DNA of 64,000 nt from an uncultured Candidatus Rokubacteria bacterium (GCA_963734175.1 CAVTGC010000010.1:252976-316975), one strand, 5' to 3'; counted from the stretch's first letter, positions 33,745-60,979 are shown. Made by a program: numbers and translations. The notes: generated from the letters alone by a model not told the origin.

Positions 33745-33806
33745 GTCGGCGCCGGCGGATCGGCTATCTGTCGTCACGATCCGATACACAACACGCCGTC
33801 GATGCG

Positions 33807-34440
33807 TCATCGTGCAGAAGCGTCCGGACGCGCTCCTGGTACCAGGGGGATCGAGTGTTCCTGACCACGCGCGTGCGGATGTGCAGTTTGCGGCCCAAAC
33901 GGCGCTTGCCAGGCATGTATGCGTACCGGGAACTCGTCGAGGCGGGCGGCCTTGCTTCCTTTGGGCGAACTACGCGGCCATGCACAGGCGTGCCGCCTAC
34001 TATGTGGACGCCGGCGTGTAGCTCGTGAACATGGCATCGACCTTCGCAATGACGAGTGCCCGCGCGAGAGCCCGAAACTGCTCAACCCGCCCCTCCAAGA
34101 AGCGGCGCTCGAAGATGACATTCCGCCCCTCGACCCACCCGGCGTCGCGAGACCCCTCGACGAAGCGTCCCTGGCCGGCGTGGCTCCAGGCACACCGTCG
34201 AGATGGCAGATTGGGGCCGGCTTCTTTGCTTGCGCATGTTGCACCGCAGCTTCGAGCGGCGCTGCGAGGTCGCCAGCCAGGGAGGTCAGCAGGATGCGGC
34301 GGCGATTCACTACTCGATCACCTGATCCGCCCGTGCTAGCAGCGAGGGCGGGATCGTCAGGCCGAGCGCCGTGGCGGTCTTTTGAGGTTGTTGACGAGTT
34401 CGAACGTCGTTGGTCCCTTGACTGGTAGATCGCCGGGTTT
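33807..34440 (-). pseudogene. Remnant of a PF04392 substrate-binding-protein tandem junction (3' end of one copy plus the Tat-signal 5' end of the next)
   Basis: 34322-34440 is a degraded copy of the …TIPPSLLARADQVIE* 3' end seen in the array at 47417-51355. It is followed directly by MNRRRILLTSLAG…. The rest of the gene is unrecognisable. Confidence 0.4.
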
Positions 34441-34563
34441 TGTCCGGCGGAAGTCTTCGATCGTGTCGTGATCGTCGTTGACCATCAACACCCGAGCAGA
34501 CACGGGCGCGGTCCTAGGTTATGTGGTTGGGGCGTGCGCAGTCGCCCGATGATACCCGCGACT

Positions 34564-41142: not shown

Positions 41143-41224
41143 ACTCGAGACCCGACTGTCTCATTCTTGTTGACAGGCTCCGCGCGCCTGAACCGACAAC
41201 TCCGCGTGGACTGAGTCGGCTACT

Positions 41225-41677
41225 TCACCAGCAGCAGGCGTGCTTCGAGCGAGCGGACCTACACCGCGCCTGCAGGCGGTCAGAGCCGCGTCGCAGGACC
41301 AGTGACGTGTGGTGCAGGCGGGCGCTACGCTGCCATGTCGACTCGATCAAGACCGCTGCACCGACACACTCGCCTTGCATCGGTGGCTTGAGTGAGCAGC
41401 GGAGATGGACACGGCCCTCCGCGCCATTCGCCGCCGTAGCGGCTCCCGGTCGCACGACCTCGCCGCATGCCGAGCAGAAGCGGTACGGCGCATACGAGGA
41501 CCAGTCGTCTTTGAGCTGACTCACGTACCGGTTGGTGAAGGGCAGGTACGGAAGGAGGATCTGATCGACATCGCGGGGGTCCAGGGGGCCAGACCAGCTC
41601 ACGAGCTTCCGGTTCTCGACCGCGACCGCCCAGACGTCGCCGGTGACGAGGTGTTGCCAGAAGCCGCGCTCGATCAT
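41225..41677 (-). CDS. Hypothetical protein with a zinc-ribbon-like motif (…RFCSACGEVVRPGAATAANGAEGRVHLRC…)
   Basis: N-terminus MIERGFWQHLVTGDVWAVAVENRKLVSWSGPLDPRDVDQILLPYLPFTNRYVSQLKDDWSSY…. It ends 41 bp from the IS3 right end. Confidence 0.35.
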   Translation of the reverse strand: MIERGFWQHLVTGDVWAVAVENRKLVSWSGPLDPRDVDQILLPYLPFTNRYVSQLKDDWSSYAPYRFCSACGEVVRPGAATAANGAEGRVHLRCSLKPPMQGECVGAAVLIESTWQRSARLHHTSLVLRRGSDRLQARCRSARSKHACCW

Positions 41678-42524: not shown

Positions 42525-42950
42525 CTACGTCGCCGCGCCGCCGTTGCCCTTGAAAACTTGCTTGACGCGTTCGCTCTGCCACATCGCCAGGCATTGGGCA
42601 TGAAGCCGGATCGTGCCCAGGCCCGGGTCATCGAACTGGTACTCGCGGTCCTGTATCGTGACCGGCTGGTCGCAGGCATCGCACGCCTTGCCTGACCCGC
42701 AGCCGACCCACATCTTCTCGGGCCGGTCGCGCGGCAGCAGACCTGCAGTGAACTTGGCTTGGATGGTGCCAAGAAGATTGGTCTGGCCTATGTCGCTGGC
42801 ACCATGGATCGGGCGCCTACGACCGCCTCGTGACCACTCGGCCGACCGGCGCATATCCCTGGCGACGCGAACGAGCATCGGGGCTTGTCCGAAGATATCG
42901 GTCGGTGGCAAGTCGATCACGGGCCGCGATAGTGGCACCGCGCGACTCAA
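42525..42950 (-). CDS. Small C-terminal zinc-ribbon protein, sub-family A
   Basis: MSRAVPLSRPVIDLPPTDIFGQAPMLVRVARDMRRSAEWSRGGRRRPIHGASDIGQTNLLGTIQAKFTAGLLPRDRPEKMWVGCGSGKACDACDQPVTIQDREYQFDDPGLGTIRLHAQCLAMWQSERVK. Confidence 0.55.
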   Translation of the reverse strand: MSRAVPLSRPVIDLPPTDIFGQAPMLVRVARDMRRSAEWSRGGRRRPIHGASDIGQTNLLGTIQAKFTAGLLPRDRPEKMWVGCGSGKACDACDQPVTIQDREYQFDDPGLGTIRLHAQCLAMWQSERVKQVFKGNGGAAT

Positions 42951-43798: not shown

Positions 43799-44248
43799 TC
43801 AGCCGACTCGTCGCAAGATCATCAGCAAAACAAAGACGAGACTAGCGACCGCGAACGCGAGAGCCTGCGCAAGCCAACGCTCCCGCCGCCGAGCGTGCAT
43901 TACGAAAATACCGGTGAAGGCGAGGCCCGGGCGAATGCAGAAGACGCCTTCGGTTGCCATCTGGCCGTTGCGGCCAAGTACCCGCACATTGCGCCGGAGC
44001 AGCTCTTCGGGTGAGGGCTCATCGATCGCCACGACCGCGCTGTACCATCGGTATGCCAGATCTTCGATCTCGTGCCGCGCCTTCCGCACAGCCCGCAGAT
44101 CCGCAGTCAGCTTGATGGTTGTTCCCATCGCCATCCCAGCCAAAACCGCCGTCACCGTCGCGATCAGCAACATTGCGAAACGCTGCTTTCTGACATGTTT
44201 GGGCCTGGATAGTGGATGACGCCCGCGTGGCACTGGGTTAGCCAGCAC
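43799..44248 (-). CDS. Hypothetical membrane protein, 149 aa
   Basis: TM stretches MLLIATVTAVLAGMAMGT and LAFAVASLVFVLLMIL. Confidence 0.4.
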   Translation of the reverse strand: MLANPVPRGRHPLSRPKHVRKQRFAMLLIATVTAVLAGMAMGTTIKLTADLRAVRKARHEIEDLAYRWYSAVVAIDEPSPEELLRRNVRVLGRNGQMATEGVFCIRPGLAFTGIFVMHARRRERWLAQALAFAVASLVFVLLMILRRVG

Positions 44249-44825
44249 CCTGGAGCCAATCCTCGCGGGTGTCTAGTGTGTGGGCTGCGCGCCTTCTAAA
44301 CGTACGATCTACCGATCTTGGTCATATTGCAATCACCATAGTGGTCGATTCCTCCGGGCCGACGGGCCCATAAGCCGTTGCTGATAGTCAAAGATCGGAG
44401 AGCGTCTCCGATAAGATCTCCGACACCAATACCTGAGCTCTGCCATGTTCCCCAGCTCCCTGCTAATCTCCGGCGCGTCTCCATGGTCCGCGGTAGGAGA
44501 GGCTTCACCTGTGGCCATGCCCCCAAAACCGAAGACGCGATGAAGCGAACTAGAGCTGTAGCAGACCTCCGGGAGCGGATATGGCTGCGTGCCCATGTCA
44601 TGTCGCGCTCGGTCTCAGGCGATCCCTGCGTCGTATCGCGCTCAGACCGTGGCGGGCCGCTGGATGGTCACCATATCGCCCAGGACGTCGTCAGTGAATC
44701 GATCGCCGACCTGGATCTCCATTTGGCACCATCGTGTTCGTCAGGGTTTCCACGTCCTGCGCCACCGGGGCTTTTGGCTCGCCGTAAACCGGACCCGATT
44801 TCCTTGGACATCTCACTGGCTAGTG

Positions 44826-45993
44826 TGTCCGGACTCGAAATAGTGTTGACACTTGCCGTGAACGAACAAGAAGGCCATCGGCTCTATCTTTCCCAGAGTG
44901 CTTACCCCGCCAAGGGAACCACTGTGGGAGGACGGACCGATGACCCTCGACGAGAGCGTACACGGAATGCGCCTGCGCGTCATCGAGCGGGCGCAGGTGC
45001 TCGGCAACGTCAGCGCCGTCTGCCGCGAGCTGGGCATCTCCCGGACCCTGTTTTACCGCTGGCGCCAACGGCTGGAACGCTATGGCGTCGAGGGGGTTCA
45101 TCCCCGGCGGCAGCGCGCCGGCGCGGGGCGGCCGGTGGCGACCCCGCCGGAGGTGGAACGGCTGGTGCTGGGGATTGCGATCAGCGCCGCGACCTGGGGG
45201 TGTCGCCGCCTGGCGGCCTACCTGGCGCGCACCTGGCAGATCCGCCTGGCGCCCAGCACCGTGCAGCGGCTGCTCCGCCGAGTCGGTTTGGCCACGCGCC
45301 GAGCGCGCCTGACGGTGCTCGAGCAGCAGGCCGCCCGGACGGCGGGGCTGCTCACGGACCGCACCCGGGAGAAGCTCTGGCGGGCCCGTCACGGCCGCAC
45401 GCGGCACGTCGAGGCCACGGAGCCGGGCCAGCTGGTGTGTCTGGACACCTTCTACATCGGCAACCTCAAAGGCGTGGGCAAGGTGTGGCAGATCACCGCG
45501 TGCGACGCGGCGACCTCTTACGGGCTGGCCGGCCTGCTGCCCGCCCACGACGCGGCCGCCGCCGCCCGCTTCCTGCGCGAGGTCGTGGTGCCGCACTTCC
45601 AGCGCGCGGGCTGGCCGGTGCGGCGCGTGCTCACCGATGGTGGCCCGGAATTCAAGGGCGCCTTTGATGGGGCCTGCCGCGAGCTCCGCCTCCGCCATAC
45701 GCGCACGAAACCGCGTCATGCCTGGACCAACGGCTTCGTCGAACGCCTGCAGGGCACGATTCTCCAGGAACTCTGGCGCGTCGTCTTCCGTCGCCGCTAT
45801 TTCACTCGTCGCGCGACGCTGCAGCGAGCCCTCGACGGCTTCATGCGCTACTACAACCACGACCGGCCTCACCAAGGCTATCGCGTCCGCGGTCGTACCC
45901 CGGCCGCGCTCGTCTGGGGCGTGGCCACACAATGAGCTCATTCACCACCACTCTGGGACCGCGGAAGTGTCAACACCATTTCGAGTCTGGACA
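44826..45993 (+). mobile_element. IS481-family insertion sequence, copy B, 1168 bp
   Basis: Flanked by the 8-bp direct repeat GGCTAGTG (44818-44825 and 45994-46001). Confidence 0.9.
44898..45935 (+). CDS. IS481-family transposase
   Basis: Identical to the copy A protein. Confidence 0.9.
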   Translation: MLTPPREPLWEDGPMTLDESVHGMRLRVIERAQVLGNVSAVCRELGISRTLFYRWRQRLERYGVEGVHPRRQRAGAGRPVATPPEVERLVLGIAISAATWGCRRLAAYLARTWQIRLAPSTVQRLLRRVGLATRRARLTVLEQQAARTAGLLTDRTREKLWRARHGRTRHVEATEPGQLVCLDTFYIGNLKGVGKVWQITACDAATSYGLAGLLPAHDAAAAARFLREVVVPHFQRAGWPVRRVLTDGGPEFKGAFDGACRELRLRHTRTKPRHAWTNGFVERLQGTILQELWRVVFRRRYFTRRATLQRALDGFMRYYNHDRPHQGYRVRGRTPAALVWGVATQ

Positions 45994-46031
45994 GGCTAGT
46001 GGTGGGATGAGCAGCAACCAAGGAGGTTGGA

Positions 46032-46397
46032 ATGAAGGCCAAGCCCCCGAAGGGAAAACCTGGTGGCACCGACCCCACGCCAGGAACGGCCGCGGATGAG
46101 TTGCCGGAGCGCTGGAGCGTGCAGCGGAAGACGGAGTTGGTGATGCGGCTGCTGCGCGGGGAGGCCTTGGATGCCGTGTCGCGGGAGAGCCAGGTGCCGG
46201 CGCACGAGCTCGAGCGCTGGCAGCGGATCTTCCTGGACCAGGGCAAGCGCGGGCTGCGCACGAAAGCCGAGCCGGAGGAGCGCGAGCTGATCCTGGCCCG
46301 CGCGAAAATCGGCGAGCTGATGATGCGCCTGGAGCTCGCCGAGGACCTCATCGAAAAAAGGGGCTTCACGGACGAGTGGAAGAGGCGCAGGGGATGA
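46032..46397 (+). CDS. IS3-family transposase OrfA (second IS3-like element)
   Basis: …ELPERWSVQRKTELVMRLLRGEALDAVSRESQVPAHELERWQRIFLDQGKRGL… AAGGAGG lies upstream of the ATG. The A6G motif (gaaaaaagg, about 46353-46361) sits in the 22-nt overlap with orfB. Confidence 0.85.
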   Translation: MKAKPPKGKPGGTDPTPGTAADELPERWSVQRKTELVMRLLRGEALDAVSRESQVPAHELERWQRIFLDQGKRGLRTKAEPEERELILARAKIGELMMRLELAEDLIEKRGFTDEWKRRRG

Positions 46398-47275
46398 GCC
46401 GGCAGCGCAGTGCCACGGGGCGCCGGTACCCGTTGACGATGATTTGTCGGGTGTATCGGCTGGCCCGGTCGTCGGTCTACGCGGCCGCTCTGGCGCCGTC
46501 GGCGGGACCGCCTGGCAAGCGCGGGCCCAAGACGCGAGTGAGCGATGGGGAGCTCGTGAAGGAGATCCGTGCCGTGCTGGCGGCGTGCCCCTTTCATGGC
46601 GAAGGCTATCGCAAGGTGCGCGCACGGCTGGCCCACCGCGGCCGGGCGGCCAGTGGCAAGCGCGTGCTTCGGCTGATGCGCACGCACGGCCTGCTGGCCC
46701 CGCGCCGCCTGGGGCCCCCGAATGGCAACCCGGCCCACGACGGGACCATCACCACCGATCGGCCGGACGTGATGTGGGGGACCGATGCGACACGCTTCTA
46801 TACCGAGCGCGACGGCTGGTGCTGGTTCTTCGGCGCGATCGATCACCATCTCGACGAAGTCGTCGGCTGGCACACGGCGAAGCTCGGCGATCGCTGGGCC
46901 GCTCTCGAGCCCATTCGCCAGGGGGTCCGCCATGCCTTCGGGCGGTTCGGCAAAGAGGTGGCGCGGGGCTTGGCGATCCGGTGCGACTGGGGCTTGCAGT
47001 ACATTGCCGACGCCTGGATCAACGAGGTGAAGTGGCTCGGGTGCACGATCTCGCCGTCGTACGTTGGCGAACCCGAGTGCAACGGGGTCGCCGAGCGCTT
47101 CATGCGCACGCTCAAGGAGCAGTGCATCTACTTGCATCAGTTCGCGAGCCTCGAGGAGGCGCGGCGACTCATCGACGAGTTCATCGCCCGGTACAACGCC
47201 GAGTGGCTGATCGAACGCCTCGGCCATCGCACCCCGGCGCAGGCGCGGGCCGCGGCCCTGGACCGAGTAGCGTGA
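46376..47275 (+). CDS. IS3-family transposase OrfB (rve integrase). Probably expressed as an OrfAB fusion by -1 frameshifting.
   Basis: …DRPDVMWGTDATRFYTERDGWCWFFGAIDHHLDEVVGWH…IRCDWGLQYIADAW…SYVGEPECNGVAERFMRTLKEQCIY… The minus-strand ORF 45938..47227 is antisense. Confidence 0.85.
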   Translation: MEEAQGMSRQRSATGRRYPLTMICRVYRLARSSVYAAALAPSAGPPGKRGPKTRVSDGELVKEIRAVLAACPFHGEGYRKVRARLAHRGRAASGKRVLRLMRTHGLLAPRRLGPPNGNPAHDGTITTDRPDVMWGTDATRFYTERDGWCWFFGAIDHHLDEVVGWHTAKLGDRWAALEPIRQGVRHAFGRFGKEVARGLAIRCDWGLQYIADAWINEVKWLGCTISPSYVGEPECNGVAERFMRTLKEQCIYLHQFASLEEARRLIDEFIARYNAEWLIERLGHRTPAQARAAALDRVA

Positions 47276-47416
47276 CCATGATGCTGGGGCTCACCCTGAC
47301 AATCGAGGGCCACAGATGTCAGAGGCGAGAACGCTGAAGCTCACAATTGCGGCTTGCTCAGTGTCCAGGAAACCGGGTGCGGTACAGCCGCGGCGCTGAG
47401 GCTCAGCCCTTCCGCT

Positions 47417-48385
47417 TCACTCGATCACCTGATCGGCCCGCAGCAGTAGGGACTGCGGGATCGTCAGGCCGAGCGCTTTGGCCGTCTTGAGGTTGACGAC
47501 GAGTTCGAACTTGGTGGCTTGCTCGATGGGAAGATCCGCCGGCTTGGCGCCTCTGAGGATCTTGTCGACATAAATTGCCGCTCTTCGCAGTTGCTCGAAG
47601 ACGTTCGCGCTGTAAGACATGAGCCCACCCGCCTCTACAACGGATCGATCGGTATACATCGCCGGCCAGCGCTTCCGCGCGGCAAACTCGACGATGCGCC
47701 GTTGATATGCAGTAGTGATGGCCGTGGGAAAGAACACTGCACCGGCGTGTTGGGAGATCGCGGCCTCGAGAGCCTTCTCCAGTTCCGCTGATTCTCGCAC
47801 GCGGACGGACTCGACCTGGAGGCTCAGGTTTTGGGCGGCCGATTCCACCGCCTGGCACCTCCTGACCGTCGCGGCATTCGCTGGATCCCAGGCGCAGGCG
47901 ACACGCTTAAGACCTGGGACCATCTCCTTGACCAGCTCAAGGGCCTTGCCATCGGCCTCCGGGCCGACAAGTGAGAGGCCTGTGGTGTTGCCGCCCGGCT
48001 GCGCAAGGCTTTTGACCAAGCCAGTCCCGACGGGATCAGCGCTGACGCTGACGATCGGAATGTTCAAGGCTTGCTGGGCCGCGCGAGCCGCCGGCGTTGT
48101 GAACGTGACGATCACATCGACGCGAGCGCGGATAAGATCCGCGACTAGGCCAGGGAGGCGGTCGCCACGTCCTTCGGCGCTGCGATTCTCGACGACGACG
48201 TTCTTGCCTTCGACGTAACCGAGATCGCTCAGACCCTGGCGGAGCGCGTCGAGTTCACCCCCGCCCGCCATGCCCCATTGAAGGAAGCCTATCCGCCAGA
48301 GCTTCCCCACCTGTTGCCCCCCAGCGGCGAACGGCGTAGCAACCGCACCAGCCAGTGAGGTCAGCAGGAAGCGGCGGCGGTCCAC
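47417..48385 (-). CDS. PF04392-family ('ABC transporter substrate-binding protein') periplasmic protein with a Tat-type signal, paralog 4 of 4
   Basis: MDRRRFLLTSLAGAVATPFAA… ; …DVIVTFTTPAARAAQQALNIPIVSVSADPVGTGLVKSLAQPGGNTTGL… ; …TIPQSLLLRADQVIE. Confidence 0.8.
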   Translation of the reverse strand: MDRRRFLLTSLAGAVATPFAAGGQQVGKLWRIGFLQWGMAGGGELDALRQGLSDLGYVEGKNVVVENRSAEGRGDRLPGLVADLIRARVDVIVTFTTPAARAAQQALNIPIVSVSADPVGTGLVKSLAQPGGNTTGLSLVGPEADGKALELVKEMVPGLKRVACAWDPANAATVRRCQAVESAAQNLSLQVESVRVRESAELEKALEAAISQHAGAVFFPTAITTAYQRRIVEFAARKRWPAMYTDRSVVEAGGLMSYSANVFEQLRRAAIYVDKILRGAKPADLPIEQATKFELVVNLKTAKALGLTIPQSLLLRADQVIE

Positions 48386-49380
48386 TACTCGATGACCTGA
48401 TCCGCCCGCGCCAGCAGCGATGGCGGGATCGTTAGGCCGAGGGCCTTCGCGGTCCTCAGGTTGATCACGAACTCGTACTTTGTGGGCTGTTCGATGGGAA
48501 TGTCTCCGGGCTTCCCGCCCCGGAGGATTTTGTCCACGAAGGTCGCTGCACGATGGTGAAGATTGGGGAGACTAGCGTTGTATGACATCAGACCACCAGA
48601 ATCCACATAGTGCCGCCAGGGGTAGATGGCGGGAAGGCGATGCTTCAGTGCCAATACCACGACCTGCCCACGATTCGGTTCGAGGACAACCGGATCCGGT
48701 CGGACAACAAGGGCACCGATGCGGGCTCCGTCGATCGCCCTGAACGCCTGTGCAATCCCCTCGGGCTTGGTGACCTCGAAGCTCTGCATCTCCAGACCGA
48801 GCGCACGGGCGGCGGCGTCAATCGCCTTCGCTCTCGATCCGGCGGGGTCAGGGACCGCCATCGGATTCACGAGGGTCGCCACGCGTACGAGGCCCGGAAC
48901 CGTCTGCTTGAGTAGCTCGAGGTGTTTCCCCTCTATCTCCGCCTGAGTCAGCCAGGCTATACCGGTGATGTTCCCTCTTGGCCGTGCCAAGTCCCGGACG
49001 AAGCCCTGCCCAATCGGGTCGGCGACGGCCGACATGACGATCGGAATCCTGGTGGTCGCCCGGCGGGCCGCTTGGGCTGCCAAGCTGCCGCGGACGACGA
49101 TGATGTCGACCTTCAGCCGCACCAGCTCGGTCGCTATGTCCGGCAACCGTTCGGATTTACCTTCTGCGTACCGATACTCGATGATGACATTCGAGCCCGG
49201 CGTCCAGCCCAGCTCGCGGAGGCCCCGCTCGAACGGCTCGCGAGCCAGTGTGGGCGGTTCGCCCAAGCTGCCACCGCTCAAATGTCCAATCCGGGCGGCC
49301 TTCGCCTGCTGCGCCTCCGCCCCGAGCGGCCCGGCCAGGGCACCAGCCACCGAGGTCAGCAGGAAGCGGCGCCGGTCCAC
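48385..49380 (-). CDS. PF04392-family substrate-binding protein, paralog 3 (GTG start)
   Basis: VDRRRFLLTSVAGALAGPLGAEAQQ…IVVRGSLAAQAARRATTRIPIVMSAVADPIGQGFVRDLARPRGNITG… The start overlaps the stop of paralog 2 (TAGTG). Confidence 0.8.
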   Translation of the reverse strand: MDRRRFLLTSVAGALAGPLGAEAQQAKAARIGHLSGGSLGEPPTLAREPFERGLRELGWTPGSNVIIEYRYAEGKSERLPDIATELVRLKVDIIVVRGSLAAQAARRATTRIPIVMSAVADPIGQGFVRDLARPRGNITGIAWLTQAEIEGKHLELLKQTVPGLVRVATLVNPMAVPDPAGSRAKAIDAAARALGLEMQSFEVTKPEGIAQAFRAIDGARIGALVVRPDPVVLEPNRGQVVVLALKHRLPAIYPWRHYVDSGGLMSYNASLPNLHHRAATFVDKILRGGKPGDIPIEQPTKYEFVINLRTAKALGLTIPPSLLARADQVIE

Positions 49381-50366
49381 TACTCGATCACCTGATCCGC
49401 CCGCGCGAGCAGCGACGGGGGGATCGTGAGGCCGAGGGTCTTGGCAGTCTTGAGGTTGATCACCAGTTCGAACTTCGTCGGTTGCTCGATTGGCGTGTCG
49501 GCAGGCTTGGCGCCCTTGAGGATTCGGTCCACGTAAGTGGCGGCCCGGCGCGACATCTGCGTGAAATCCGGACCGTAGGCCATGAGACAGCCTTCCACGA
49601 CGAACAGTGTCGTCTCGCACGTCATCGGCAGGCGGTGGGCGGCGGCCAGCTCGATAAGCTTCGCCCGGTAGGTTGCGAGGAACGGTGAGGCTATCTGGAA
49701 CACCGCATGCGCCCCATTCTTTTTGGCGGACACTAACGCCGGGGTGAAATCCTCGGGCCGCTGAACCTCGAGCCGCTGGGTCTGCAAGCCGAGCCCCTGC
49801 GCCGCCGCCTCGACCGCGCGGACCCCGGTGTCCCCGCCGCCGCCGCGGTCCCAGAGGAGGGCGACTCGCCGCATGCCGGGCACGACCTCCCTGAGCAGTT
49901 CGAGGCGTTTTGTCCCCAACTCGGAGTCCTGAAAGGCTAGGCCTGTGATGTTCCCCCCTGGACGCGCCAAACTCTTGACGAAACCGAAGGCCACCGGCTC
50001 ATGCACGATCGCCATGACGATCGGAACCGTTGCGCTCGCCTGCTGTGAGGCGCGGATCGCCTGGGGACCCCACGCCACGAGCACGTCGACGGGGAGCGCA
50101 ACGAGCTCGGACGCGATCTTCGGAAATTCGTCCAGCCGTCCCTCGCCCCATCGCGTCTCGATCACGATCGTCTGCCCCTCGATCCACCCCAGTTCTCGAA
50201 GTCCGTCGCGGAGCGTCTTGACCAGCAACTGGAACTGATCACCCGCGCTGGAGCCCGGGGCGAAGACCCCGACGCGGGGCGTCTTCGCTGCTTGCTGCGC
50301 CTCGGCGACAGGCGGCGCAACGAGGGCACCGGCCAGCGAGGTCAGCAGGAACCGGCGACGGTCCAC
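49380..50366 (-). CDS. PF04392-family substrate-binding protein, paralog 2
   Basis: MDRRRFLLTSLAGALVAPPVAEAQQ… ; …TIPPSLLARADQVIE. Confidence 0.8.
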   Translation of the reverse strand: MDRRRFLLTSLAGALVAPPVAEAQQAAKTPRVGVFAPGSSAGDQFQLLVKTLRDGLRELGWIEGQTIVIETRWGEGRLDEFPKIASELVALPVDVLVAWGPQAIRASQQASATVPIVMAIVHEPVAFGFVKSLARPGGNITGLAFQDSELGTKRLELLREVVPGMRRVALLWDRGGGGDTGVRAVEAAAQGLGLQTQRLEVQRPEDFTPALVSAKKNGAHAVFQIASPFLATYRAKLIELAAAHRLPMTCETTLFVVEGCLMAYGPDFTQMSRRAATYVDRILKGAKPADTPIEQPTKFELVINLKTAKTLGLTIPPSLLARADQVIE

Positions 50367-51355
50367 TACTCGACTACCTGATCCGCCCGCGCCAGGAGTG
50401 ATGGCGGGATTGTGAGGCCGAGGGCTTTGGCGGTCTTCACGTTTACGATTAACTCGAACTTCGCGGGTCCCTCCATTGGGAGATCGCCTGGCGCGGCACC
50501 TTTGAGGATGCGGTCGACGTAGCCCGCGGCGCGCCGATACATATCGGCACCATCGGGCCCATGAGCGATCAACCCGCCCGCGCGCGCGAAGGTCGGCGAC
50601 CCGAAGGAGGCCAGGCGATGCTGAAGGGCGAGACTGGCAATCTGAGCCCCGAGTGGATTCAGGAGCGACGTGTTCGGCACAATGACGGCCTGCGCTCCCT
50701 GCTGTGTCAAGGCGGCGAATGCCTGGGCGAGGTCGGCCGGGCGCCGCACGGGCACGCGACGGACTGCTAAGCCCAACGTTCGCGCGGCATCATCCTCCTT
50801 TTGGCGCCACACTTCGGCAACCTCGGGCCGCTCGATGCCAGGGACGTCCAGCCAGCCCACGTCTGAAGCTCCGGGGACGACCTGCTTCACCAGCTCCAGC
50901 CATTTCACGGTCGATGCGAACTCTTCGAGTACGAGCCCCGTGATGTTCCCGCCCGGACGGGAGAGGCTGGCGACGACACCGCTAGCCACCGGGTCACCCA
51001 CCACTGCGATGACGACGGGAATCGTGGCTGTCGCCTGCTTGGCTGCGCGGGAGCCGGCCGAGCCGTGCGTCACGATGGCATCGACGTTAAGGCCGACCAG
51101 CTCCTTTGCCAAAGTTGGCAAGCGGTCGAGTTTGCGCTCGGCCCAGCGGTATTCAATGACGAGGTTCTTGCCTTCCTCGTATCCCAGAGCCTGGAGGCCT
51201 TGGCGCAGTGCAGCCGTTTGGCGGGTAAGGTCTCCGGGAGAGGTTTGGCCGAGAAATCCGACCCGATAGACTCGCTCTGCCGTTTGTGCCTCAGCGGCGA
51301 GCGGTGCAGTCAGCGCTCCCGCCAGCGAGATTACGAAGAAGCGACGGCGGTCCAT
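50366..51355 (-). CDS. PF04392-family substrate-binding protein, paralog 1
   Basis: MDRRRFFVISLAGALTAPLAAEAQT… (internal Met of ORF 50366..51454) ; …TIPPSLLARADQVVE. Confidence 0.8.
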   Translation of the reverse strand: MDRRRFFVISLAGALTAPLAAEAQTAERVYRVGFLGQTSPGDLTRQTAALRQGLQALGYEEGKNLVIEYRWAERKLDRLPTLAKELVGLNVDAIVTHGSAGSRAAKQATATIPVVIAVVGDPVASGVVASLSRPGGNITGLVLEEFASTVKWLELVKQVVPGASDVGWLDVPGIERPEVAEVWRQKEDDAARTLGLAVRRVPVRRPADLAQAFAALTQQGAQAVIVPNTSLLNPLGAQIASLALQHRLASFGSPTFARAGGLIAHGPDGADMYRRAAGYVDRILKGAAPGDLPMEGPAKFELIVNVKTAKALGLTIPPSLLARADQVVE

Positions 51356-51450
51356 AGTCACCCCAACTCCCGCATCTCCGCCTCCGATTTCTCCAGCCAG
51401 TACGTCATGCCCATGTCGCGGTACATCGGACCCCACGCTCTGTTCGGTCC

Positions 51451-51831
51451 TCACGTTCGATGACGCTCAATGAGCTGTTCCACTGCCGCCACGAAGTCTT
51501 TTATCTTGATCGGCTTGCTCTGGAAGCCGTCGAATCCTGCGTCCAACACTCTCTGCCGATCCTCGGACATCACCGACGCGGTCATGGCCATAACGGGAAT
51601 CCCCTGAGTGGCGACCTCGGCTCGCAGCCGTCCGAGCGCCTGGATCCCGTCGATGCCGGGTAGTCGAATGTCCATCAGGATCAGGCTCGGGCGGTGCTCT
51701 TGGGCGAGTCCGACTCCCTCTTCTCCCGTCTCGGCTTCTATGATCTCGTAGCCCTTGAACGCCAGCAGATCCCGGACGAGCTTTCGACTCTTGCTATCGT
51801 CCTCCACGACGAGGACTAGCTCATTCGCCAT
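51451..51831 (-). CDS. Single-domain response regulator (REC)
   Basis: MANELVLVVEDDSKSRKLVRDLLAFKGYEIIEAETGEEGVGLAQEHRPSLILMDIRLPGIDGIQALGRLRAEVATQGIPVMAMTASVMSEDRQRVLDAGFDGFQSKPIKIKDF…. Confidence 0.85.
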   Translation of the reverse strand: MANELVLVVEDDSKSRKLVRDLLAFKGYEIIEAETGEEGVGLAQEHRPSLILMDIRLPGIDGIQALGRLRAEVATQGIPVMAMTASVMSEDRQRVLDAGFDGFQSKPIKIKDFVAAVEQLIERHRT

Positions 51832-54325
51832 CGCGCACCGGAATCGTGAACGTAAACGTCGAACCGACACCAACCTGGCTCTGGACCCGGATCCGGCCCC
51901 CGTGCAGCTCGATGAACTTCCGGGCCAGGGCAAGTCCCAGACCGGTCCCCTCGGCCTTCTTCTCCGCCGCCCCCACCTGTCGAAACTCCTCGAACACCGC
52001 CCCCAGGTCCGAGGGCGCGATGCCCACGCCAGTGTCGGCCACGGACACCTCCACCAGCGCCTCGTTCACCGCCGCACGGACGTCGATCCGCCCACCTTCC
52101 GGCGTGAACTTGATTGCGTTGGACAACAGGTTCAAGAGCACCTGCTTGATCTTCCGCTCGTCCCCTCGAATCTCGCCGAGAAGCGGGTCGATCGAGTGCT
52201 CCAGCGTGATCCCCCGGCGCAGTGCCCGTTCCCGCACGAGGACCAGAGCATTGTCAATCGCCTGGGGTAGATGGAAGTCCATCAGCTCCAGTTCCATGCG
52301 GCCAGCTTCGATCTTCGACAGATCGAGAATGTCGTTGATCAGTGACAGCAGGTGCGTGCCGGAGGCGTTGATGTCCTGAACGTACTCGGCCTGCTTGTGG
52401 TTCAGTTCGCCGAACATCCGCTCACCCAGCACTTCCGAGAACCCTATGACTGCGTTGAGGGGCGTCCGTAGTTCATGCGACATGTTGGCCAGGAATTCAG
52501 ATTTGTGCTGGCTGGCCACTTCGAGCTGGCGGCTCTTGTCGGCCAGCTCGTTGAACAGTCGGACGTTCTCGATGGCGATCACCGCTTGGTCGGCGAATGT
52601 CTTCAGCAGCGCGATCTGCTGATCCACGAACGGCCGAACAGCGAACCGCATCGCGAAGATCGTTCCGAGCGCAATGCCTTCGCGGACTAGCGGCACAGCA
52701 AGCACCGTGCGATGCCCGAAGCGGCGTTGCAAGTCCCGACCAAGCGAGAAGTCGGCTTCTGACGCGACGGCCAAGTCGGGAATATGGAGCGTCGTACCAT
52801 CGATCACTGAGCGGGCCGCGACGGAGTCTCGCACGAGCGGCACACGGAAATCGGCTGCCAAACTTCCCCAGAACGTACCGACACCCGCGACAGGACGGAG
52901 CACATCACCCTCGCGGATGAGCAGAAGGACGTCGTTAGCTGTGCAGAGCCGCGCGGACCTCGCGACCAGGGAGTCGAAGACGGGCTGCACGTCAGTTGGC
53001 GAGCTCGAAATCACGCCCAGGATCTCACTGGTCGCCGTCTGTCGCTCCAGCGCCTCAGTGACCTGCCCGTGAGCCTGCGTGAGCGCGCGATTCTTCTCCT
53101 GCAATTCCTTGAACAGCCGCACGTTCTCGATGGCGATCACCGCCTGGTCGGCGAAGGTCTTCAACAGCTCGATCTCGTTGTCGGCGAATGATCCAGGCTC
53201 GGCACGCGCCACCCCGATGACGCCGATGGGAACACCCTCGCGCAACATTGGTACGAAGAGGCCGCTTCGCCAGCCGACCGCGCGAGACAGGGCCGGATGC
53301 TGATACTCCGGATCGACCCCGACATTGGGTATGTGAACAACCGCACGCTCGAGGATCACCCGCCCTGCCCCCAAGGTTCGGGTTGGACGCACCGGGAATG
53401 CGCGACGCATCTCCTCCAGAGCTTCGGAGGAGAAGTTGTGCTGGGCAACATGATGGAGCAGCTCGCCGTCGAACCGATACAGCACGCTGAAGAGACCATC
53501 GCACAACGTCGCGGCGCTCCTGGCGATCGTGTCGAAGACCGGCTGCACGTCGGTCGGCGAGCTGGCAATCACGCGAAGAATCTCGCTTGTAGCGGTCTGC
53601 TGGTCCAGCGACTCCATCACCTGCGCGTGGGCCTGGGTCAGGGCCTGGTTCTTCTCTTGGAGCTCGGTAAACAGGCGGACGTTCTCGATGGCGATGACGG
53701 CCTGGTCGGCGAAGGTGTCCAGGAGCGCGATCTGCTTGTCGCTGAATGGCCGGACGTGGCGTCGATGGAATGCCAGGGCCCCAACGAGTCGACCTTCCTT
53801 GAGCATCGGGACAGCCAGAGAAGTTCGCATGCCTTCCCGGCGGTACACCTCAGGCGGTGAGAAGGACGGGTCGGCAAGAATGTCAGCGACATGACTGATC
53901 CGCGGCTCTAGTCCAACGCGCCGCAGCGGCGTCTCCGGTCCCGGCAGGATGACCGCCTCTTGAAGGTAGGCGCGGAATTCGTCCGACAATTCGACGACCG
54001 CTGCCATGCGGAAGCCTTGTCCATCGAAGGTGAAGATGCCGCCATTGTTAGCCTCACAGAGGCGAAGGGCATTTGCGAGGATGGTGTCAAACACCGGCTG
54101 GACGTCCGCCGGCGACTGACTGATGACCCGCAGAATCTCGCTGGTCGCGGTCTGACGCTCCAGCGCCTCCGCCTCGCGCTTCACCGCCTCCGCCAGATGC
54201 TTCTCCAGATCGCGGATTCTGGCGCCTTGTTTCGTGGAGGCATTACTGCTGCGAGAGGGCTTCGCGTCGACTTTGGCCTGCGTAGGCTTTGCGCGAGGAC
54301 GCATCGGCCGCTTCTCGCCTCTCAA
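51821..54325 (-). CDS. Multi-GAF sensor histidine kinase, 834 aa
   Basis: Four repeats of the GAF-type block (QTATSEILRVI.SSP.DVQPVFD… / …VPM…G…G…RF.D.QIALL.TFADQAVIAIENVRLF.EL), then HisKA (…EFLANMSHELRTPLNAVIGFSEVL…) and HATPase_c (…DTGVGIAPSDLGAVFEEFRQ…GTGLGLALARKFIELHGGRIRV…). Confidence 0.85.
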   Translation of the reverse strand: MRGEKRPMRPRAKPTQAKVDAKPSRSSNASTKQGARIRDLEKHLAEAVKREAEALERQTATSEILRVISQSPADVQPVFDTILANALRLCEANNGGIFTFDGQGFRMAAVVELSDEFRAYLQEAVILPGPETPLRRVGLEPRISHVADILADPSFSPPEVYRREGMRTSLAVPMLKEGRLVGALAFHRRHVRPFSDKQIALLDTFADQAVIAIENVRLFTELQEKNQALTQAHAQVMESLDQQTATSEILRVIASSPTDVQPVFDTIARSAATLCDGLFSVLYRFDGELLHHVAQHNFSSEALEEMRRAFPVRPTRTLGAGRVILERAVVHIPNVGVDPEYQHPALSRAVGWRSGLFVPMLREGVPIGVIGVARAEPGSFADNEIELLKTFADQAVIAIENVRLFKELQEKNRALTQAHGQVTEALERQTATSEILGVISSSPTDVQPVFDSLVARSARLCTANDVLLLIREGDVLRPVAGVGTFWGSLAADFRVPLVRDSVAARSVIDGTTLHIPDLAVASEADFSLGRDLQRRFGHRTVLAVPLVREGIALGTIFAMRFAVRPFVDQQIALLKTFADQAVIAIENVRLFNELADKSRQLEVASQHKSEFLANMSHELRTPLNAVIGFSEVLGERMFGELNHKQAEYVQDINASGTHLLSLINDILDLSKIEAGRMELELMDFHLPQAIDNALVLVRERALRRGITLEHSIDPLLGEIRGDERKIKQVLLNLLSNAIKFTPEGGRIDVRAAVNEALVEVSVADTGVGIAPSDLGAVFEEFRQVGAAEKKAEGTGLGLALARKFIELHGGRIRVQSQVGVGSTFTFTIPVRDGE

Positions 54326-54955
54326 GGTGCGGTGCCCTCCGGCCGACCGGCGCTACCAGTCCCGAGCCGGGTTCTGGATCGCGACGTTGATCCTGCCACA
54401 GTCAACGAATACGGCGCCAGCCTCCCCCCACGCTCTGGGTCGAAAGCGGCTGGCGGGTTCTCCTGCTGGCATCGGGGGCATTTCATGAAGCACTCCCACG
54501 CGCCGGGCGCGGCTCAGTCGGAACACGGTAAGCCTGGGGGCCGGGGAGGGTCAATAAGCGGTCTTCTTGGCTGTAGGGAGCACATGATCTGTCCGCTTCT
54601 GAGAGCAAGTGATCTCTCCACTGCCGGGCGGGTGGGGTCGGGGTGTGGTGGTCGGCCGGGAGGTCGACCATGCTCTTCACGGCCCCCTCTAGAGGCGAGG
54701 ACGCCGCTAAGAGGGACTTCGCCATGGCCGGCGCCAGCGGCCTCGCAGCGGCAGGCGGGTGTGGAGTTCCAGCGCATGCTTCGGCCGCCGTGAGCGCGAC
54801 GGCGCCACAAGCGCCCCTCGATCTCTAAAAAGTAGGAAGATATCGCCCGCTGTATCGTCGTGCACGGCCAAGGGCGGTTAGAGCCAAACCGCCGGTGTGC
54901 TGATAGCCGTCAGTATGTCCCGGTCCGTCGAGGTACCCCCGGAATGTGAAAAAGT

Positions 54956-57690
54956 TTGCCTATGCGGCACACGTTCGTGGGGTCAATCTCTGCGATGTTG
55001 GTAGACTACCGCCGGCGATTCGAGTGCCATACCCACATCATGAGCGAGAACAACACTGGACCTGCGCGCCGGAGGAAGCCCTCTTCTGCGGCTCGCAAGG
55101 CTCTTCAGCGCGAGGGGGTTCGTAAAGAGGGTCGTAAAGAGCGTGAAGCCGGGCAACCGGCCGCGCGCCTCGTATCAGCAACCGAAGCGCGCAGCCGCGC
55201 GATCCGCGAGCAGGTGATCTTCGGTGTCGCAGTAACCGATCTCAATGGGCACTTCCTCGAGGTCAACCCAGCCTACTGTCGAATCACGGGCTACAGCGAA
55301 CAGGATTTGCTCGCCACCGACTTTTCGTCGATCACCCATCCGGACGACCGGGCGGAGAACGCGATCCTGCGTGGCCAAGCGCTTGCCGGGCAGATTCCTG
55401 GCTTCGTTGTCGAAAAGCGATACGTGCGCAAGGATGGCGTACATGTCTGGGTACGCAACGCTGTCTCTCTCATCCGCGATGCCAAAGGGCGCGCGGACAG
55501 CTTTTTAGCGCTGACCTATGACCTGACTGACCGCAAAGAGATGGAGCAAGAGCTTCGGCGGCGCAAAGACGAGCTGACTTCATTCTTCGAGCATGCCAGC
55601 ATCGGCCTGCACTGGGTCGGGCCGGACGGCATTGTCCAGTGGGCGAACCCGGCCGAACTGGCGATGTTGGGTTACGCCAGGGAGGAATATGAGGGGCGCC
55701 ACATCGCCGAGTTTCATGTCGACCAAGACGTCATCACCGACATCCTGGACCGCCTGGCTCGCGGCGAACCCTCAAACAATACGAGGCCCGACTCCGGCGC
55801 AAGGATGGGTCGATCCGGTACGCGTCGATCGATTCGTGCGTGCTGTGGGAGGAGGGCCGCTTCCTTCACACCCAGTGCTTTACGCGCGACATCACGGAAC
55901 AGAAGCTGGCCGATGAAGCCATGCGTCGGCGGACCGCGCAGTTCGAAACCCTGCTCAACGAAGCGCCGCTCGGCGTCTACCTCGTCGATGGCGGTTTCCG
56001 CATTCGGGAGGTCAACCCGACCGCCCTGCCTGTCTTCGGGAATATTCCCGATCTCATCGGCCGCGATTTCGACGAGGTGATCCACATCCTATGGCCCAAC
56101 GCCTATGCGAATGAGATCGTCGAGCGGTTCCGGCATACGCTGGAAACTGGAGAGGCCTATATCGTGCCGGAGCATGTCGAGGAGCGTCGTGACCGCGGCG
56201 TCCGCGAGGTATATGAGTGGCAGATCAGCCGCACCCCGCTGCCGGACGGCCGGCACGGCGTCGTCTGCTATTTTCGGGATATCTCCGCCCACGTGGCCGC
56301 CCGCGAGGCCTTGCGGGCGTCTGACCGCGCGAAGGACGAGTTTCTAGCGATGCTGGGGCATGAACTCCGCAACCCACTCGGCGCGCTGGCGAGTGCTGCG
56401 CGTCTCCTTGATCTCGAGGGGCGGTCACCGGAGGCGGCAGCGCGCGCCCGGGGCGTAATAGGCCGGCAGCTTGATCACCTTACGCGCCTAGTGGACGATT
56501 TGCTCGACGTGAGCCGCGTCACGACGGCCAGGGTGCGGTTGAGCCAGCGCCCACTTGACCTCAGCGCATCCGTGAAGAGCGCGGTCGAAACGCTTCGGGC
56601 CCGGGGTACGCTCGACCGCCACAATGTCATCTTTGAGGGGCAGCCGGTATGGGTTCAAGCCGATGAGACCCGGATCGAGCAGATCGTCTCGAATCTGGTC
56701 GGGAATGCGGTGAAGTTCACCCAATCGGGTGGCACTGTGTCGGTGAGCGTGGAGGGCAATGACGCGGAAGCGGTGCTCGCGGTCAAAGACACCGGTGTCG
56801 GCATCGCGGCCGACATGATTCCGCGGATCTTTGATCTCTTTGTTCAAGGCGAGCGGAACCTTGACCGTTCGCAGGGCGGGCTCGGCATCGGTCTTACACT
56901 CGTGCGTCGTCTTGTCGAGCTCCACGGCGGGACGGTCGAGGCGGCAAGCGGCGGTCCGGGGAGGGGTAGCGTAGTCACTGTGCGGCTGCCTGCGATTCCA
57001 GCTCTCCCGGTTCCGAAAACGGCCGCAGCCGCGGTGAAGCCGCAGGAGAGCGCTCCCAGGCGTGTGCTGATCGTCGAAGACAATGACGACGCACGCGAGA
57101 TGATGCGTGTCGTGCTAGAGCATGACGGGCACGAGGTACATGAAGCGGCCGACGGGCCGGGTGGCCTCCAGGCGGCACTGGCGTTACGGCCGGATGTCGT
57201 GCTACTGGATGTCGGGCTGCCTGGACTCGATGGCTATGAGGTGGCGCGGCGCATCCGGGCCGATGCTGGCCGCCAGATCTATCTGGTGGCGCTTACGGGA
57301 TATGGCCAGCCCGAAGACCGCCTACGTTCGACGGAGGCCGGCTTCGATGAGCATATCGTAAAGCCGGTCGATCCCGCGCGACTGGTATCCCTACTCGCTC
57401 GCGCGGACAGCCGAGGGGGCCAGCAGCACACGCCACAGGTTAGGCGCTTGCCCGAATTTCCCCCGGGATCTGGACGGTTTCGTTGGCACCGACAAATGCC
57501 AAGGAGGAACCATCATGAGTCGCCTGGTCGCGTCCACTCTCGGCACCGGAAGCACAACGGCGTGGGCACAACCCCCGAAGGACCCGCCCAAGGCCCAGCC
57601 GAAGGCCCCGCTGCCGACGAGGGCGTTGCTCGACATCAACAGCGCCTCGGCCGACGATCTGAAGGCGCTGAAGGGCATCGGCGAGGCTGA
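54956..57690 (+). pseudogene. Hybrid sensor histidine kinase (3 PAS, HisKA, HATPase_c, REC) with a frameshift near 55790. The 3' end is uncertain: the receiver ends around 57405 and the ORF tail runs on.
   Basis: ORFs 54956..56080 and 55840..57690 together encode PAS blocks (…FGVAVTDLNGHFLEVNPAYCRITGYSEQDLL… ; …IGLHWVGPDGIVQWANPAELAMLGYAREEYEGRHIAEFH… ; …APLGVYLVDGGFRIREVNPTALPVFG…), HisKA (…EFLAMLGHELRNPLGALAS…), HATPase (…DTGVGIAADMIPRIFDLFVQGE…GGLGIGLTLVRRLVELHGGTV…) and REC (…RVLIVEDNDDAREMM…VLLDVGLPGLDGYEV…). Confidence 0.75.
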
Positions 57691-59476: not shown

Positions 59477-59811
59477 TTCGGCCGAGTCTCGGAGGCGCGG
59501 TGGAGCGCCAAGAATGGCTTGCTCTTTGCGCGCTGCCAGGCGGTATGAACCCGCGCCAGCTCGCGGCAGAAGAACGCGACCTGGTCGGCACCGGGCCGCA
59601 ACAGGCCAAGACGCTGGGCGAGTTCGAAGAACCCGTGCCCAGGGATGTTGTCCTGCCTGTGCACCACGATGGCGGTCAGCAGGGGGCCACCCTGCTGGTG
59701 CTCGTGCGAGATGGCGGTGAGAATATGTCGGATTGCGTCGCGGTCGGCCGGGCTGTCAATGCCCAGGCCGGCCAGTGCTGCGATGGCGCTGTATGTGGTC
59801 GTTCCCTAGAG

Positions 59812-60979
59812 TGTCCAGACTCGAAATGGTGTTGACACTTCCGCGGTCCCAGAGTGGTGGTGAATGAGCTCATTGTGTGGCCACGCCCCAGACGAGCGCG
59901 GCCGGGGTACGACCGCGGACGCGATAGCCTTGGTGAGGCCGGTCGTGGTTGTAGTAGCGCATGAAGCCGTCGAGGGCTCGCTGCAGCGCCGCGCGACGAG
60001 TGAAATAGCGGCGACGGAAGACGACGCGCCAGAGTTCCTGGAGAATCGTGCCCTGCAGGCGTTCGACGAAGCCGTTGGTCCAGGCATGACGCGGTTTCGT
60101 GCGCGTATGGCGGAGGCGGAGCTCGCGGCAGGCCCCATCAAAGGCGCCCTTGAATTCCGGGCCACCATCGGTGAGCACGCGCCGCACCGGCCAGCCCGCG
60201 CGCTGGAAGTGCGGCACCACGACCTCGCGCAGGAAGCGGGCGGCGGCGGCCGCGTCGTGGGCGGGCAGCAGGCCGGCCAGCCCGTAAGAGGTCGCCGCGT
60301 CGCACGCGGTGATCTGCCACACCTTGCCCACGCCTTTGAGGTTGCCGATGTAGAAGGTGTCCAGACACACCAGCTGGCCCGGCTCCGTGGCCTCGACGTG
60401 CCGCGTGCGGCCGTGACGGGCCCGCCAGAGCTTCTCCCGGGTGCGGTCCGTGAGCAGCCCCGCCGTCCGGGCGGCCTGCTGCTCGAGCACCGTCAGGCGC
60501 GCTCGGCGCGTGGCCAAACCGACTCGGCGGAGCAGCCGCTGCACGGTGCTGGGCGCCAGGCGGATCTGCCAGGTGCGCGCCAGGTAGGCCGCCAGGCGGC
60601 GACACCCCCAGGTCGCGGCGCTGATCGCAATCCCCAGCACCAGCCGTTCCACCTCCGGCGGGGTCGCCACCGGCCGCCCCGCGCCGGCGCGCTGCCGCCG
60701 GGGATGAACCCCCTCGACGCCATAGCGTTCCAGCCGGTGGCGCCAGCGGTAAAACAGGGTCCGGGAGATGCCCAGCTCGCGGCAGACGGCGCTGACGTTG
60801 CCGAGCACCTGCGCCCGCTCGATGACGCGCAGGCGCATTCCGTGTACGCTCTCGTCGAGGGTCATCGGTCCGTCCTCCCACAGTGGTTCCCTTGGCGGGG
60901 TAAGCACTCTGGGAAAGATAGAGCCGATGGCCTTCTTGTTCGTTCACGGCAAGTGTCAACACTATTTCGAGTCCGGACA
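59812..60979 (-). mobile_element. IS481-family insertion sequence, copy C, 1168 bp
   Basis: Flanked by the 8-bp direct repeat CCCTAGAG (59804-59811 and 60980-60987). Confidence 0.9.
59870..60907 (-). CDS. IS481-family transposase
   Basis: Differs from copies A and B by 2 amino acids (WRHRLERY ; RRAALQ). Confidence 0.9.
   Translation of the reverse strand: MLTPPREPLWEDGPMTLDESVHGMRLRVIERAQVLGNVSAVCRELGISRTLFYRWRHRLERYGVEGVHPRRQRAGAGRPVATPPEVERLVLGIAISAATWGCRRLAAYLARTWQIRLAPSTVQRLLRRVGLATRRARLTVLEQQAARTAGLLTDRTREKLWRARHGRTRHVEATEPGQLVCLDTFYIGNLKGVGKVWQITACDAATSYGLAGLLPAHDAAAAARFLREVVVPHFQRAGWPVRRVLTDGGPEFKGAFDGACRELRLRHTRTKPRHAWTNGFVERLQGTILQELWRVVFRRRYFTRRAALQRALDGFMRYYNHDRPHQGYRVRGRTPAALVWGVATQ

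Follow-up and report, generated by a model that had tools for sequence, protein, structure and literature searches.

A recurrent gene order that joins a multi-GAF histidine kinase to orphan PF04392 substrate-binding proteins in a Candidatus Rokubacteria bacterium

The window analyzed here is a 64,000-nucleotide stretch of DNA from an uncultured Candidatus Rokubacteria bacterium (GCA_963734175.1, CAVTGC010000010.1:252976-316975). Its minus strand contains, at positions 47417-54325, six intact genes that encode a multi-GAF histidine kinase, a receiver-only response regulator and four substrate-binding proteins (SBPs) of the PF04392 family, SBP1 to SBP4. The adjacency of the kinase and SBP genes is not due to chance, as the order of a multi-GAF kinase, an optional receiver and one or more PF04392 genes recurs in other genomes. 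We propose that the four SBPs capture ligands in the periplasm for a transporter whose genes lie elsewhere and that the kinase and receiver are connected with them through co-expression or regulation, a reading in which we place about even confidence. Every part of the unit belongs to a known protein family. In the literature on PF04392/COG2984, orphan SBPs and Rokubacteria, we found no published description of the SBP arrays or of their link to a kinase; that search did not extend to the multi-GAF kinase class.

Gene order in other genomes

A reciprocal scan of metagenome contigs with the window kinase yielded 80 loci at 50-63% identity, and collapsing kinases that are at least 90% identical left 68 kinase clusters. 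A same-strand PF04392 gene lies within 700 nt of the kinase stop codon at 15 of the 63 evaluable loci, whereas the upstream side contains one at only 1 of 54. The asymmetry is retained upon dereplication (14/56 downstream versus 1/48 upstream within 700 nt, p = 7e-4) and at a distance of up to 1500 nt (15/48 versus 0/36, p = 9e-5). Where the receiver is absent, the kinase and SBP genes are separated by gaps of 0-92 nt, and the loci represent several phyla. Besides receivers, PF04392 genes are the commonest downstream partners of the kinases, and the remaining partners are diverse, including major facilitator superfamily (MFS), ApbA and amidase genes.

A counterpart of the window cassette is found on a soil contig, L100, where the kinase core, the receiver and a short intergenic scar align with the window at 82% nucleotide identity over 1276 nt and are followed by an SBP gene. 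Judged from this alignment, L100 is a true ortholog of the cassette. The same relationship was also approached from the SBP side, using the best 80 of more than 590 loci in species-representative genomes. Two-component genes are embedded in the SBP arrays at approximately 12 of these 80 SBP-anchored loci. Pfam identifies a multi-GAF kinase, a window-type receiver and a receiver-cyclase beside PF04392 arrays at L040, L054, L065 and L082, and the other array-embedded classes consist of NtrC-type regulators or a different receiver. Orthologs of the window receiver occur at these four loci and at L100.

The genes that follow kinase-linked SBPs are catabolic and include those for an aromatic-ring hydroxylase, hydrolases, a cupin and a cyclase-fold enzyme, and no conserved membrane protein follows kinase-linked SBPs in the related loci. 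The possibility that the first SBP after the kinase constitutes a conserved clade was rejected, given that kinase-adjacent SBPs are 45-51% identical to any window paralog.

The six-gene unit and its binding proteins

All six genes of the unit lie on the minus strand and, upon direct reading of the sequence, retain complete catalytic motifs. The kinase gene (51821..54325), whose product has an exact database match (P0001), is followed by the receiver gene (51451..51831), SBP1 (50366..51355), SBP2 (49380..50366), SBP3 (48385..49380) and SBP4 (47417..48385), which terminates at a TGA codon without a fifth SBP copy behind it. All three SBP-SBP junctions read GAGTAGTGGACCG, in which the G of the TAG stop codon is the first base of the GTG start codon, and the receiver ATG overlaps the kinase stop codon by 11 nt (ATGGCGAATGA). 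A 96-nt gap extends from the receiver stop codon to the SBP1 ATG at 51355. An alternative GTG at 51454 overlaps the receiver stop codon (GTGA) with the SBP1 frame open, and its use would lengthen SBP1 by 33 residues. A sigma-70/terminator scan detected neither a terminator-like site nor a sigma-70 promoter on the coding strand inside the unit, and a permissive scan of 47000-55200 detected no Rfam family. A sigma-54 promoter scan returned 49 matches versus 63 expected, with no match of one mismatch or fewer upstream of the kinase or in the receiver-SBP1 gap.

Because the junctions are overlapping or short, the coding strand is devoid of terminator-like sites and the gene order is conserved, the compact, intact set of kinase, receiver and SBP genes is probably co-transcribed as one unit. 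The original prediction of a single minus-strand unit of six genes is thus upheld, and its estimate that the four PF04392 paralogs are about 40-55% identical agrees with the observed pairwise values of 46-49%. It had also placed a TAGTG-type overlap at every start codon, which is true of the three SBP-SBP junctions and not of the receiver-SBP1 junction with its 96-nt gap. In other genomes, namely the Binatia and proteobacterial metagenome-assembled genomes with loci L012, L013 and L046, an NtrC-type (receiver-AAA-HTH) regulator gene immediately precedes a PF04392 array, the longest of which has 12 genes, and this hints at sigma-54 control at those loci.

The kinase is an 834-residue protein in which Pfam recognizes GAF in three stretches, HisKA and HATPase_c. 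The original prediction counted four GAF units, but three are indicated by Pfam, by the QTATSEIL motif at residues 58, 243 and 429 and by a DNA repeat with a period of 558 nt. Translation starts at a TTG codon at 54325, and the database protein P0001 begins seven codons later. A hydropathy scan of the kinase revealed no plausible membrane segment and no N-terminal hydrophobic segment; the highest 19-residue hydropathy (1.68) falls within a GAF strand that holds R and E. By its sequence, the kinase is a soluble, cytoplasmic protein without a transmembrane or periplasmic part, and a membrane segment is likewise unclear or absent in all but one (L126) of 20 related kinases scanned. The kinase motifs SHELRTPLN, DTGVGI and GTGLGL and the receiver motifs VVEDD and LILMD can be read directly, and together with the HisKA, HATPase_c and Response_reg matches they identify a two-component pair. 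The 126-residue receiver covers the complete Response_reg profile (1-111/111) and has no output domain.

The four SBPs consist of 322-331 residues and match the PF04392 profile from positions 11-19 to its last position (293 of 293) with 148-175 bits, compared with a gathering cutoff of 25.9 (E-values of 1e-43 to 4e-51). Each contains a D-R-R-R-F-[LF] motif (MDRRRFF in SBP1 and MDRRRFLL in SBP2), a hydrophobic stretch and an A-x-A-like site, and the SBPs are accordingly annotated here as putatively exported, periplasmic proteins. The twin-arginine translocation (Tat) signals that had been predicted for them are candidate signals, recognized only from this sequence motif.

Six homologs were combined with the paralogs in a profile, which matches PDB 3LFT (E = 6e-47), 3LKV and 6HNI. 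An AlphaFold model of SBP2, the sole paralog modeled, has a pLDDT of 86.9, with residues 1-26 (the predicted signal peptide) disordered, and superimposes on 3LFT and 3LKV with TM-scores of 0.91-0.93 and root-mean-square deviations of 2.0-2.2 Å. The modeled structure of SBP2 is a closed two-lobe type I fold that resembles TrpX and CD0873. The PGGN(I/V)TG motif and a C-terminal KGAKPAD...LGLTIP block are common to the window SBPs and 3LFT; because 3LFT has the C-terminal block too, it is a family feature rather than a special docking motif.

In the structurally characterized relatives, side-chain selectivity is set by two positions, which are occupied by Ala-246 and Tyr-262 in VC_1101, Ala-268 and Gln-284 in SP1069, and Glu-263 and Tyr-279 in CD0873 (PMC6816091). 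Alignment maps both positions in the window SBPs to S/G in SBP1, T/F in SBP2, W/L in SBP3 and D/V in SBP4. As far as the aligned residues indicate, the four pockets are distinct and differ from one another at the selectivity positions. The T/F pair is kept in the four homologs of alignment A1 that most resemble SBP2 there (P0125, P0153, P0188 and the more distant P0227). SBP2 also has many orthologs at 75-87% identity in soil metagenomes and is thus under purifying selection. For SBP1, the nearest relative among the species genomes (75% identity) is encoded at L042 (11481-12425); the contig that carries it was assigned to the archaeon Candidatus Nitrosocosmicus, probably through mis-binning.

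TrpX, CD0873, VC_1101 and SP1069 (PDB 3LFT, 3LKV and 6HNI) share the PF04392 family, the two-lobe fold and the conserved motifs with the window SBPs. However, SBP2 is only 26% identical to 3LFT and 3LKV and 18% identical to CD0873, and the TrpX-type proteins are anchored as lipoproteins, whereas the window SBPs carry a candidate twin-arginine signal. Assignment as TrpX orthologs was rejected: the window SBPs score 118-148 bits against the NCBIfam TrpX equivalog NF041285, far below its cutoff of 390, and both selectivity residues differ. The window SBPs are therefore members of PF04392 and not TrpX orthologs. They further differ from TrpX-type proteins in forming tandem arrays without an adjacent permease and ATPase.

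The absence of transporter genes extends across the window. No reading frame with a Walker-A motif plus LSGGQ exists in the 64 kb, and tblastn with the ATP-binding cassette (ABC) ATPase and permease of a related locus found no match there, in agreement with the original statement that no permease or ATPase lies nearby. Neither the window nor 79 of the 80 related loci displays the canonical PF04392 importer operon with an adjacent permease and ATPase. An ABC ATPase gene is located within ±10 kb at 8 of the 80 SBP loci and is adjacent and co-oriented at L080 only. The ABC genes at the other loci were rejected as cognate partners, as L077 encodes a fused protein with two nucleotide-binding domains, L082 contains its own SBP_bac_6 system, and at L036, L042, L045 and L079 the ABC genes lie far from the SBP genes or run in the opposite direction. 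Orthologs of SBP2 stand alone, neighbor catabolic genes and an MFS transporter or belong to arrays, and are never accompanied by ABC genes.

In the single exception, L080 (Rokubacteria; region 6675-13573), a four-gene array of the window SBP subfamily sits inside an ABC operon, and one-base stop/start overlaps form two of its three junctions. One side of the array is a stretch that matches the BPD_transp_1 permease of the same locus (tblastn, E = 5e-34); on the other side, an ABC_tran ATPase gene is followed by the BPD_transp_1 permease gene (Pfam) and an amidohydrolase gene. The SBP subfamily can thus sit in an ABC operon. We take the L080 transporter genes to be NitT/TauT-like, which would make them an unusual PF04392 partner; the usual permease partner is BPD_transp_2. 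The original prediction would have been contradicted by ABC genes in a conserved operon with these SBPs, and L080, being a single instance, does not constitute a conserved operon. Its view that the SBPs are less likely to be transporter subunits is nevertheless stronger than the data, given that the L080 array lies between ABC genes.

The SBP subfamily is large. An exhaustive search collected 12,149 clusters (50% identity) at E <= 1e-30 and 132,554 at E <= 1e-3. The hosts of the SBP loci include Methylomirabilota/Rokubacteria, Binatia and delta-, beta- and alphaproteobacteria such as Bradyrhizobium, and the closest relatives of the window proteins belong to Methylomirabilota/Rokubacteria and Binatia. 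At least two SBP genes are present at 49 of the 80 loci and at least four at 27; the longest arrays contain 12 near-full-length genes, or 15 tblastn matches at L032 when fragments are counted. The one-base stop/start overlap is found at 17 of 152 tandem SBP junctions. Abundant uncultured soil phyla commonly encode the subfamily, which hardly ever stands beside a transporter. The blanket annotation of PF04392 proteins as "ABC transporter substrate-binding protein" or "tryptophan/tyrosine transporter" is unsupported for this subfamily of at least 12,149 clusters.

Connection between the kinase and the binding proteins

How could a cytoplasmic two-component pair be connected with four periplasmic proteins? 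Since the kinase has no membrane or periplasmic part and the receiver has no output domain, the SBPs cannot signal to them directly. The original prediction regarded the SBPs as sensory or ligand-scavenging modules tied to the two-component pair; the tie is evident in the shared unit and in the recurring gene order, but direct contact is not possible. In our proposal, the locus would be a trimmed copy of a recurrent soil-bacterial cassette in which a multi-GAF kinase and a receiver are followed by one or more PF04392 genes, in some cases with a receiver-adenylate/guanylate cyclase, which the window unit lacks, in between. Each SBP would capture a different small molecule, probably an amino-acid-like or aromatic compound, and hand it to a transporter that is encoded elsewhere and shared by many paralogs, resembling the Bug/TctC proteins of Bordetella. 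The kinase and receiver would receive no signal from the SBPs and would be linked to them by co-expression or regulation; the GAF domains might, for example, sense an intracellular metabolite or a second messenger that is connected with the SBP cargo. The conserved ends of the SBP genes would serve as recombination handles that shuffle arrays and kinase cassettes and leave scars behind.

The comparison with Bordetella is one of analogy. Many Bug/TctC genes of Bordetella are orphans with few membrane partners, and most have no assigned function; binding-protein families expanded in this way are already known. Bug proteins differ from the window SBPs in belonging to an unrelated fold family (PF03401, tripartite tricarboxylate transporters), and no systematic association with a cytoplasmic GAF kinase has been reported for them.

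Several observations weigh against the capture proposal. No transporter for SBP1-SBP4 was found in the window, and the ABC link exists at just 1 of the 80 loci, where the permease is of the BPD_transp_1 type. Because the kinase-adjacent SBPs form no distinct clade, no specific kinase-SBP pairing is visible. Moreover, with neither a receiver output domain nor a cyclase present, no route from the kinase to expression or uptake can be named. Finally, the unit may be decaying, since the kinase is eroded at its N-terminus and the region is rich in insertion sequences (ISs).

An alternative, which we consider improbable, is that the SBPs are extracytoplasmic sensors that dock on a membrane receptor (a kinase, cyclase or chemoreceptor) encoded elsewhere, with the array acting as a receptor repertoire. 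LuxP-LuxQ and TorT-TorS are examples of SBP-dependent sensor kinase systems. The activation of sensor kinases by SBPs is an established mechanism, and AgtS and AruS, with their neighboring SBPs, resemble the window in that an SBP gene stands beside a histidine kinase gene (PMC11113362). Kinases, receivers, NtrC-type regulators and cyclases also recur within SBP arrays, which are almost never adjacent to ABC genes. On plasmid pRL11 of Rhizobium ruizarguesonis, a PF04392 homolog gene (39.7% identity) overlaps a dCache_1-HAMP-Guanylate_cyc gene by 17 nt, and the same SBP/cyclase annotation lies under the match on other Rhizobium plasmids. The pRL11 pair is comparable to the window in coupling an orphan PF04392 gene, through overlap, to a signaling gene, but its partner is a membrane receptor with a periplasmic Cache domain, and it contains a single SBP and no array. 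The SBP-dependent kinases are membrane proteins with a periplasmic docking domain, and their mechanism cannot apply to the window kinase because it lacks a membrane segment; 19 of the 20 related kinases scanned lack a clear one as well. In addition, no membrane receptor gene is conserved beside the arrays, the SBP subfamily occurs inside an ABC operon at L080, and the solved relatives are transport SBPs.

It is similarly doubtful that the adjacency lacks a function and reflects two amplified families that recombination at SBP gene ends has joined repeatedly in a decaying region rich in mobile elements. This explanation draws on the differing scars at the same point 3' of orthologous receivers (the window and L100 versus L096, L101, L119 and L140), on a vestigial zinc ribbon, a scrambled SBP remnant and six IS copies in the window, on the lack of positional orthology among kinase-adjacent SBPs and on the kinases that precede unrelated genes (MFS transporters, ApbA and amidase). 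It does not readily account for the strong downstream/upstream asymmetry of same-strand, tightly spaced genes across the 68 dereplicated kinase clusters from several phyla, for six genes that are intact with complete catalytic motifs or for the purifying selection on SBP2. Far less likely still is the possibility that the kinase-receiver-SBP segment is the cargo of a composite transposon between inverted IS481-like copies at 44805-46004 and 59806-60985. The two copies are 99-100% identical and flank 13.8 kb that include the unit; however, all three copies in the window are bordered by separate CTAGN duplications, a shared outer duplication is absent, and a second instance of the segment was not found. 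A broader extension of our proposal, to which we assign a low probability, is that the kinase, the receiver, an optional receiver-cyclase and the PF04392 array represent an unrecognized, widespread sensory-uptake module of soil bacteria in which a hyper-diversified SBP repertoire supplies imported ligands that the GAF domains read, with phosphotransfer or cyclic AMP as output. Such a module might range over Methylomirabilota/Rokubacteria, Binatia and several proteobacterial classes.

Related cassettes exist in culturable rhizobia. Rhizobium etli pRetIE4803d encodes a kinase of the same architecture (37.6% identity over 91% of the query), followed by a CheY-like receiver with a 4-nt overlap and a receiver-adenylate cyclase, and contains no SBP array. 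A plasmid of Bradyrhizobium japonicum carries a 1722-residue GAF kinase gene and a receiver gene amid SBP genes, an adenylate cyclase gene and IS elements. Clusters of GAF-kinase and SBP genes are present in culturable Bradyrhizobium or Microvirga strains. Compared with the rhizobial cassette and that of L040, L054, L065 and L082, the window cassette lacks the receiver-cyclase and the zinc ribbon and has only three GAF units. The directional and statistically supported link to one class of cytoplasmic GAF kinase provides a concrete hypothesis for both orphan families, for which the rhizobia offer a testing ground. Even if recombination alone accounts for the link, the locus remains an example of array turnover driven by conserved gene ends.

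Scars, insertion sequences and neighboring genes

The receiver-SBP1 gap contains a 22-codon scar open reading frame (ORF) at 51358..51426 (minus strand), which reads MYRDMGMTYWLEKSEAEMRELG up to its stop codon, 2 nt before the SBP1 ATG, and follows the pattern MYR[DE]M[GD]MTYWLEK[SA]EAEMRELG plus stop. The scar peptide is found at the same place in L100 (about 5240-5305), and the two versions differ at six nucleotides, of which approximately half are synonymous in the scar frame and almost none in the SBP frame. The same peptide forms the C-terminus of large ORFs (785-878 residues) near related kinases at L112 and L125 and of shorter or cut ORFs at L120 and L135, and a stub of it directly follows the kinase stop codon at L108-L110. 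An origin from the missing receiver-cyclase was rejected, as the scar matches the C-terminus of a different large protein family. The scar ORF may be a pseudogene scar or a translational-coupling relay. At L096, L101, L119 and L140, the receiver-SBP gap is occupied by the final 10-37 codons of an SBP gene instead. The ends of SBP genes are 74-75% identical at the nucleotide level versus 51% in the core and thereby offer homology for recombination.

A second trace of rearrangement is a scrambled SBP-SBP junction remnant at 33803..34452 (minus strand), recognized by tblastn and three-frame translation. Its 34452-34006 part (minus strand) comprises the last 46 codons of an SBP gene, the junction GAGTAGTGAATCG and approximately 100 frameshifted N-terminal codons of the next SBP gene, and abuts an inverted SBP fragment at 33803-34009 (plus strand). 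This remnant corroborates the decayed junction copy that the original prediction had placed at 33807-34440 and read as a sign of earlier duplication and loss, and it shows earlier rearrangement of the array.

Upstream of the kinase, alignment with L100 identifies a vestigial zinc ribbon of the kinase N-terminus (MKCPRCQQENPP...) at 54324..54486 (minus strand). The vestige is out of the kinase frame, has lost its second CxxC and ends in a stop codon, whereas the L100 ortholog keeps an intact zinc-ribbon start, MKCPRCQQESPPKAKFCLGCG. The block at 54564-54452 is 86% identical to L100 by blastn and includes TTGACCCTCCCCGGCCCCCA upstream of the vestige; it may be the ancestral promoter or 5' end.

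The SBP4 side of the unit is bordered by an IS3-like element at 46007..47360 (plus strand; orfA 46032-46397 and orfB 46376-47275; Pfam rve/rve_3/HTH_21), whose right end is located about 56 nt from the SBP4 stop codon, the element ends being approximate. Next to it lies the IS481-like element at 44805..46004 (plus strand), which is defined by repeats, Pfam rve/HTH_32 and end alignment; repeats also identify the copies at 37266-38465 and 59806-60985, both on the minus strand. The three 1.2-kb IS481-like copies are 98-100% identical and are flanked by their own duplications, CTAGT, CTAGA and CTAGG, which indicate independent simple insertions. CTAG is a typical target of the IS481 family. The intact duplication at the 44805-46004 copy argues against an IS-mediated deletion there. 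Displacement of ABC genes from the 3' side of SBP4 by an IS is disfavored by the same duplication and by the lack of ABC genes on its far side; past the IS pair, the small ORFs scanned (43799-44248, 42525-42950 and 41225-41677) have no Pfam match.

Elsewhere in the window, an IS3-like element with orfA and orfB in overlapping frames is present as two identical copies in direct orientation, at 12287-13800 and 39661-41170. An inverted repeat of 337 nt (13884-14220 and 42527-42863, 80% complementary) is related to them.

Signaling genes are dense across the whole 64-kb window. Divergent from the GAF kinase gene, a PAS ORF (54956-56080, plus strand) overlaps a PAS-HisKA-HATPase_c-receiver ORF (55840-57690, plus strand) by 240 nt in a different frame, and the pair is probably a single hybrid kinase gene, interrupted by a frameshift or split through a sequencing error. 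A PAS-PAS-GAF-HisKA-HATPase_c-receiver hybrid kinase is encoded at 29571-32680 (plus strand), with a receiver truncated to profile positions 1-73 of 111 behind it, and a CheB methylesterase gene (35721-36692, minus strand) lies near the decayed SBP junction. At the start of the window, a perfect tandem duplication at 992-1266 (a 136-nt unit in 2.0 copies with 100% identity) is either very recent or an assembly artifact.

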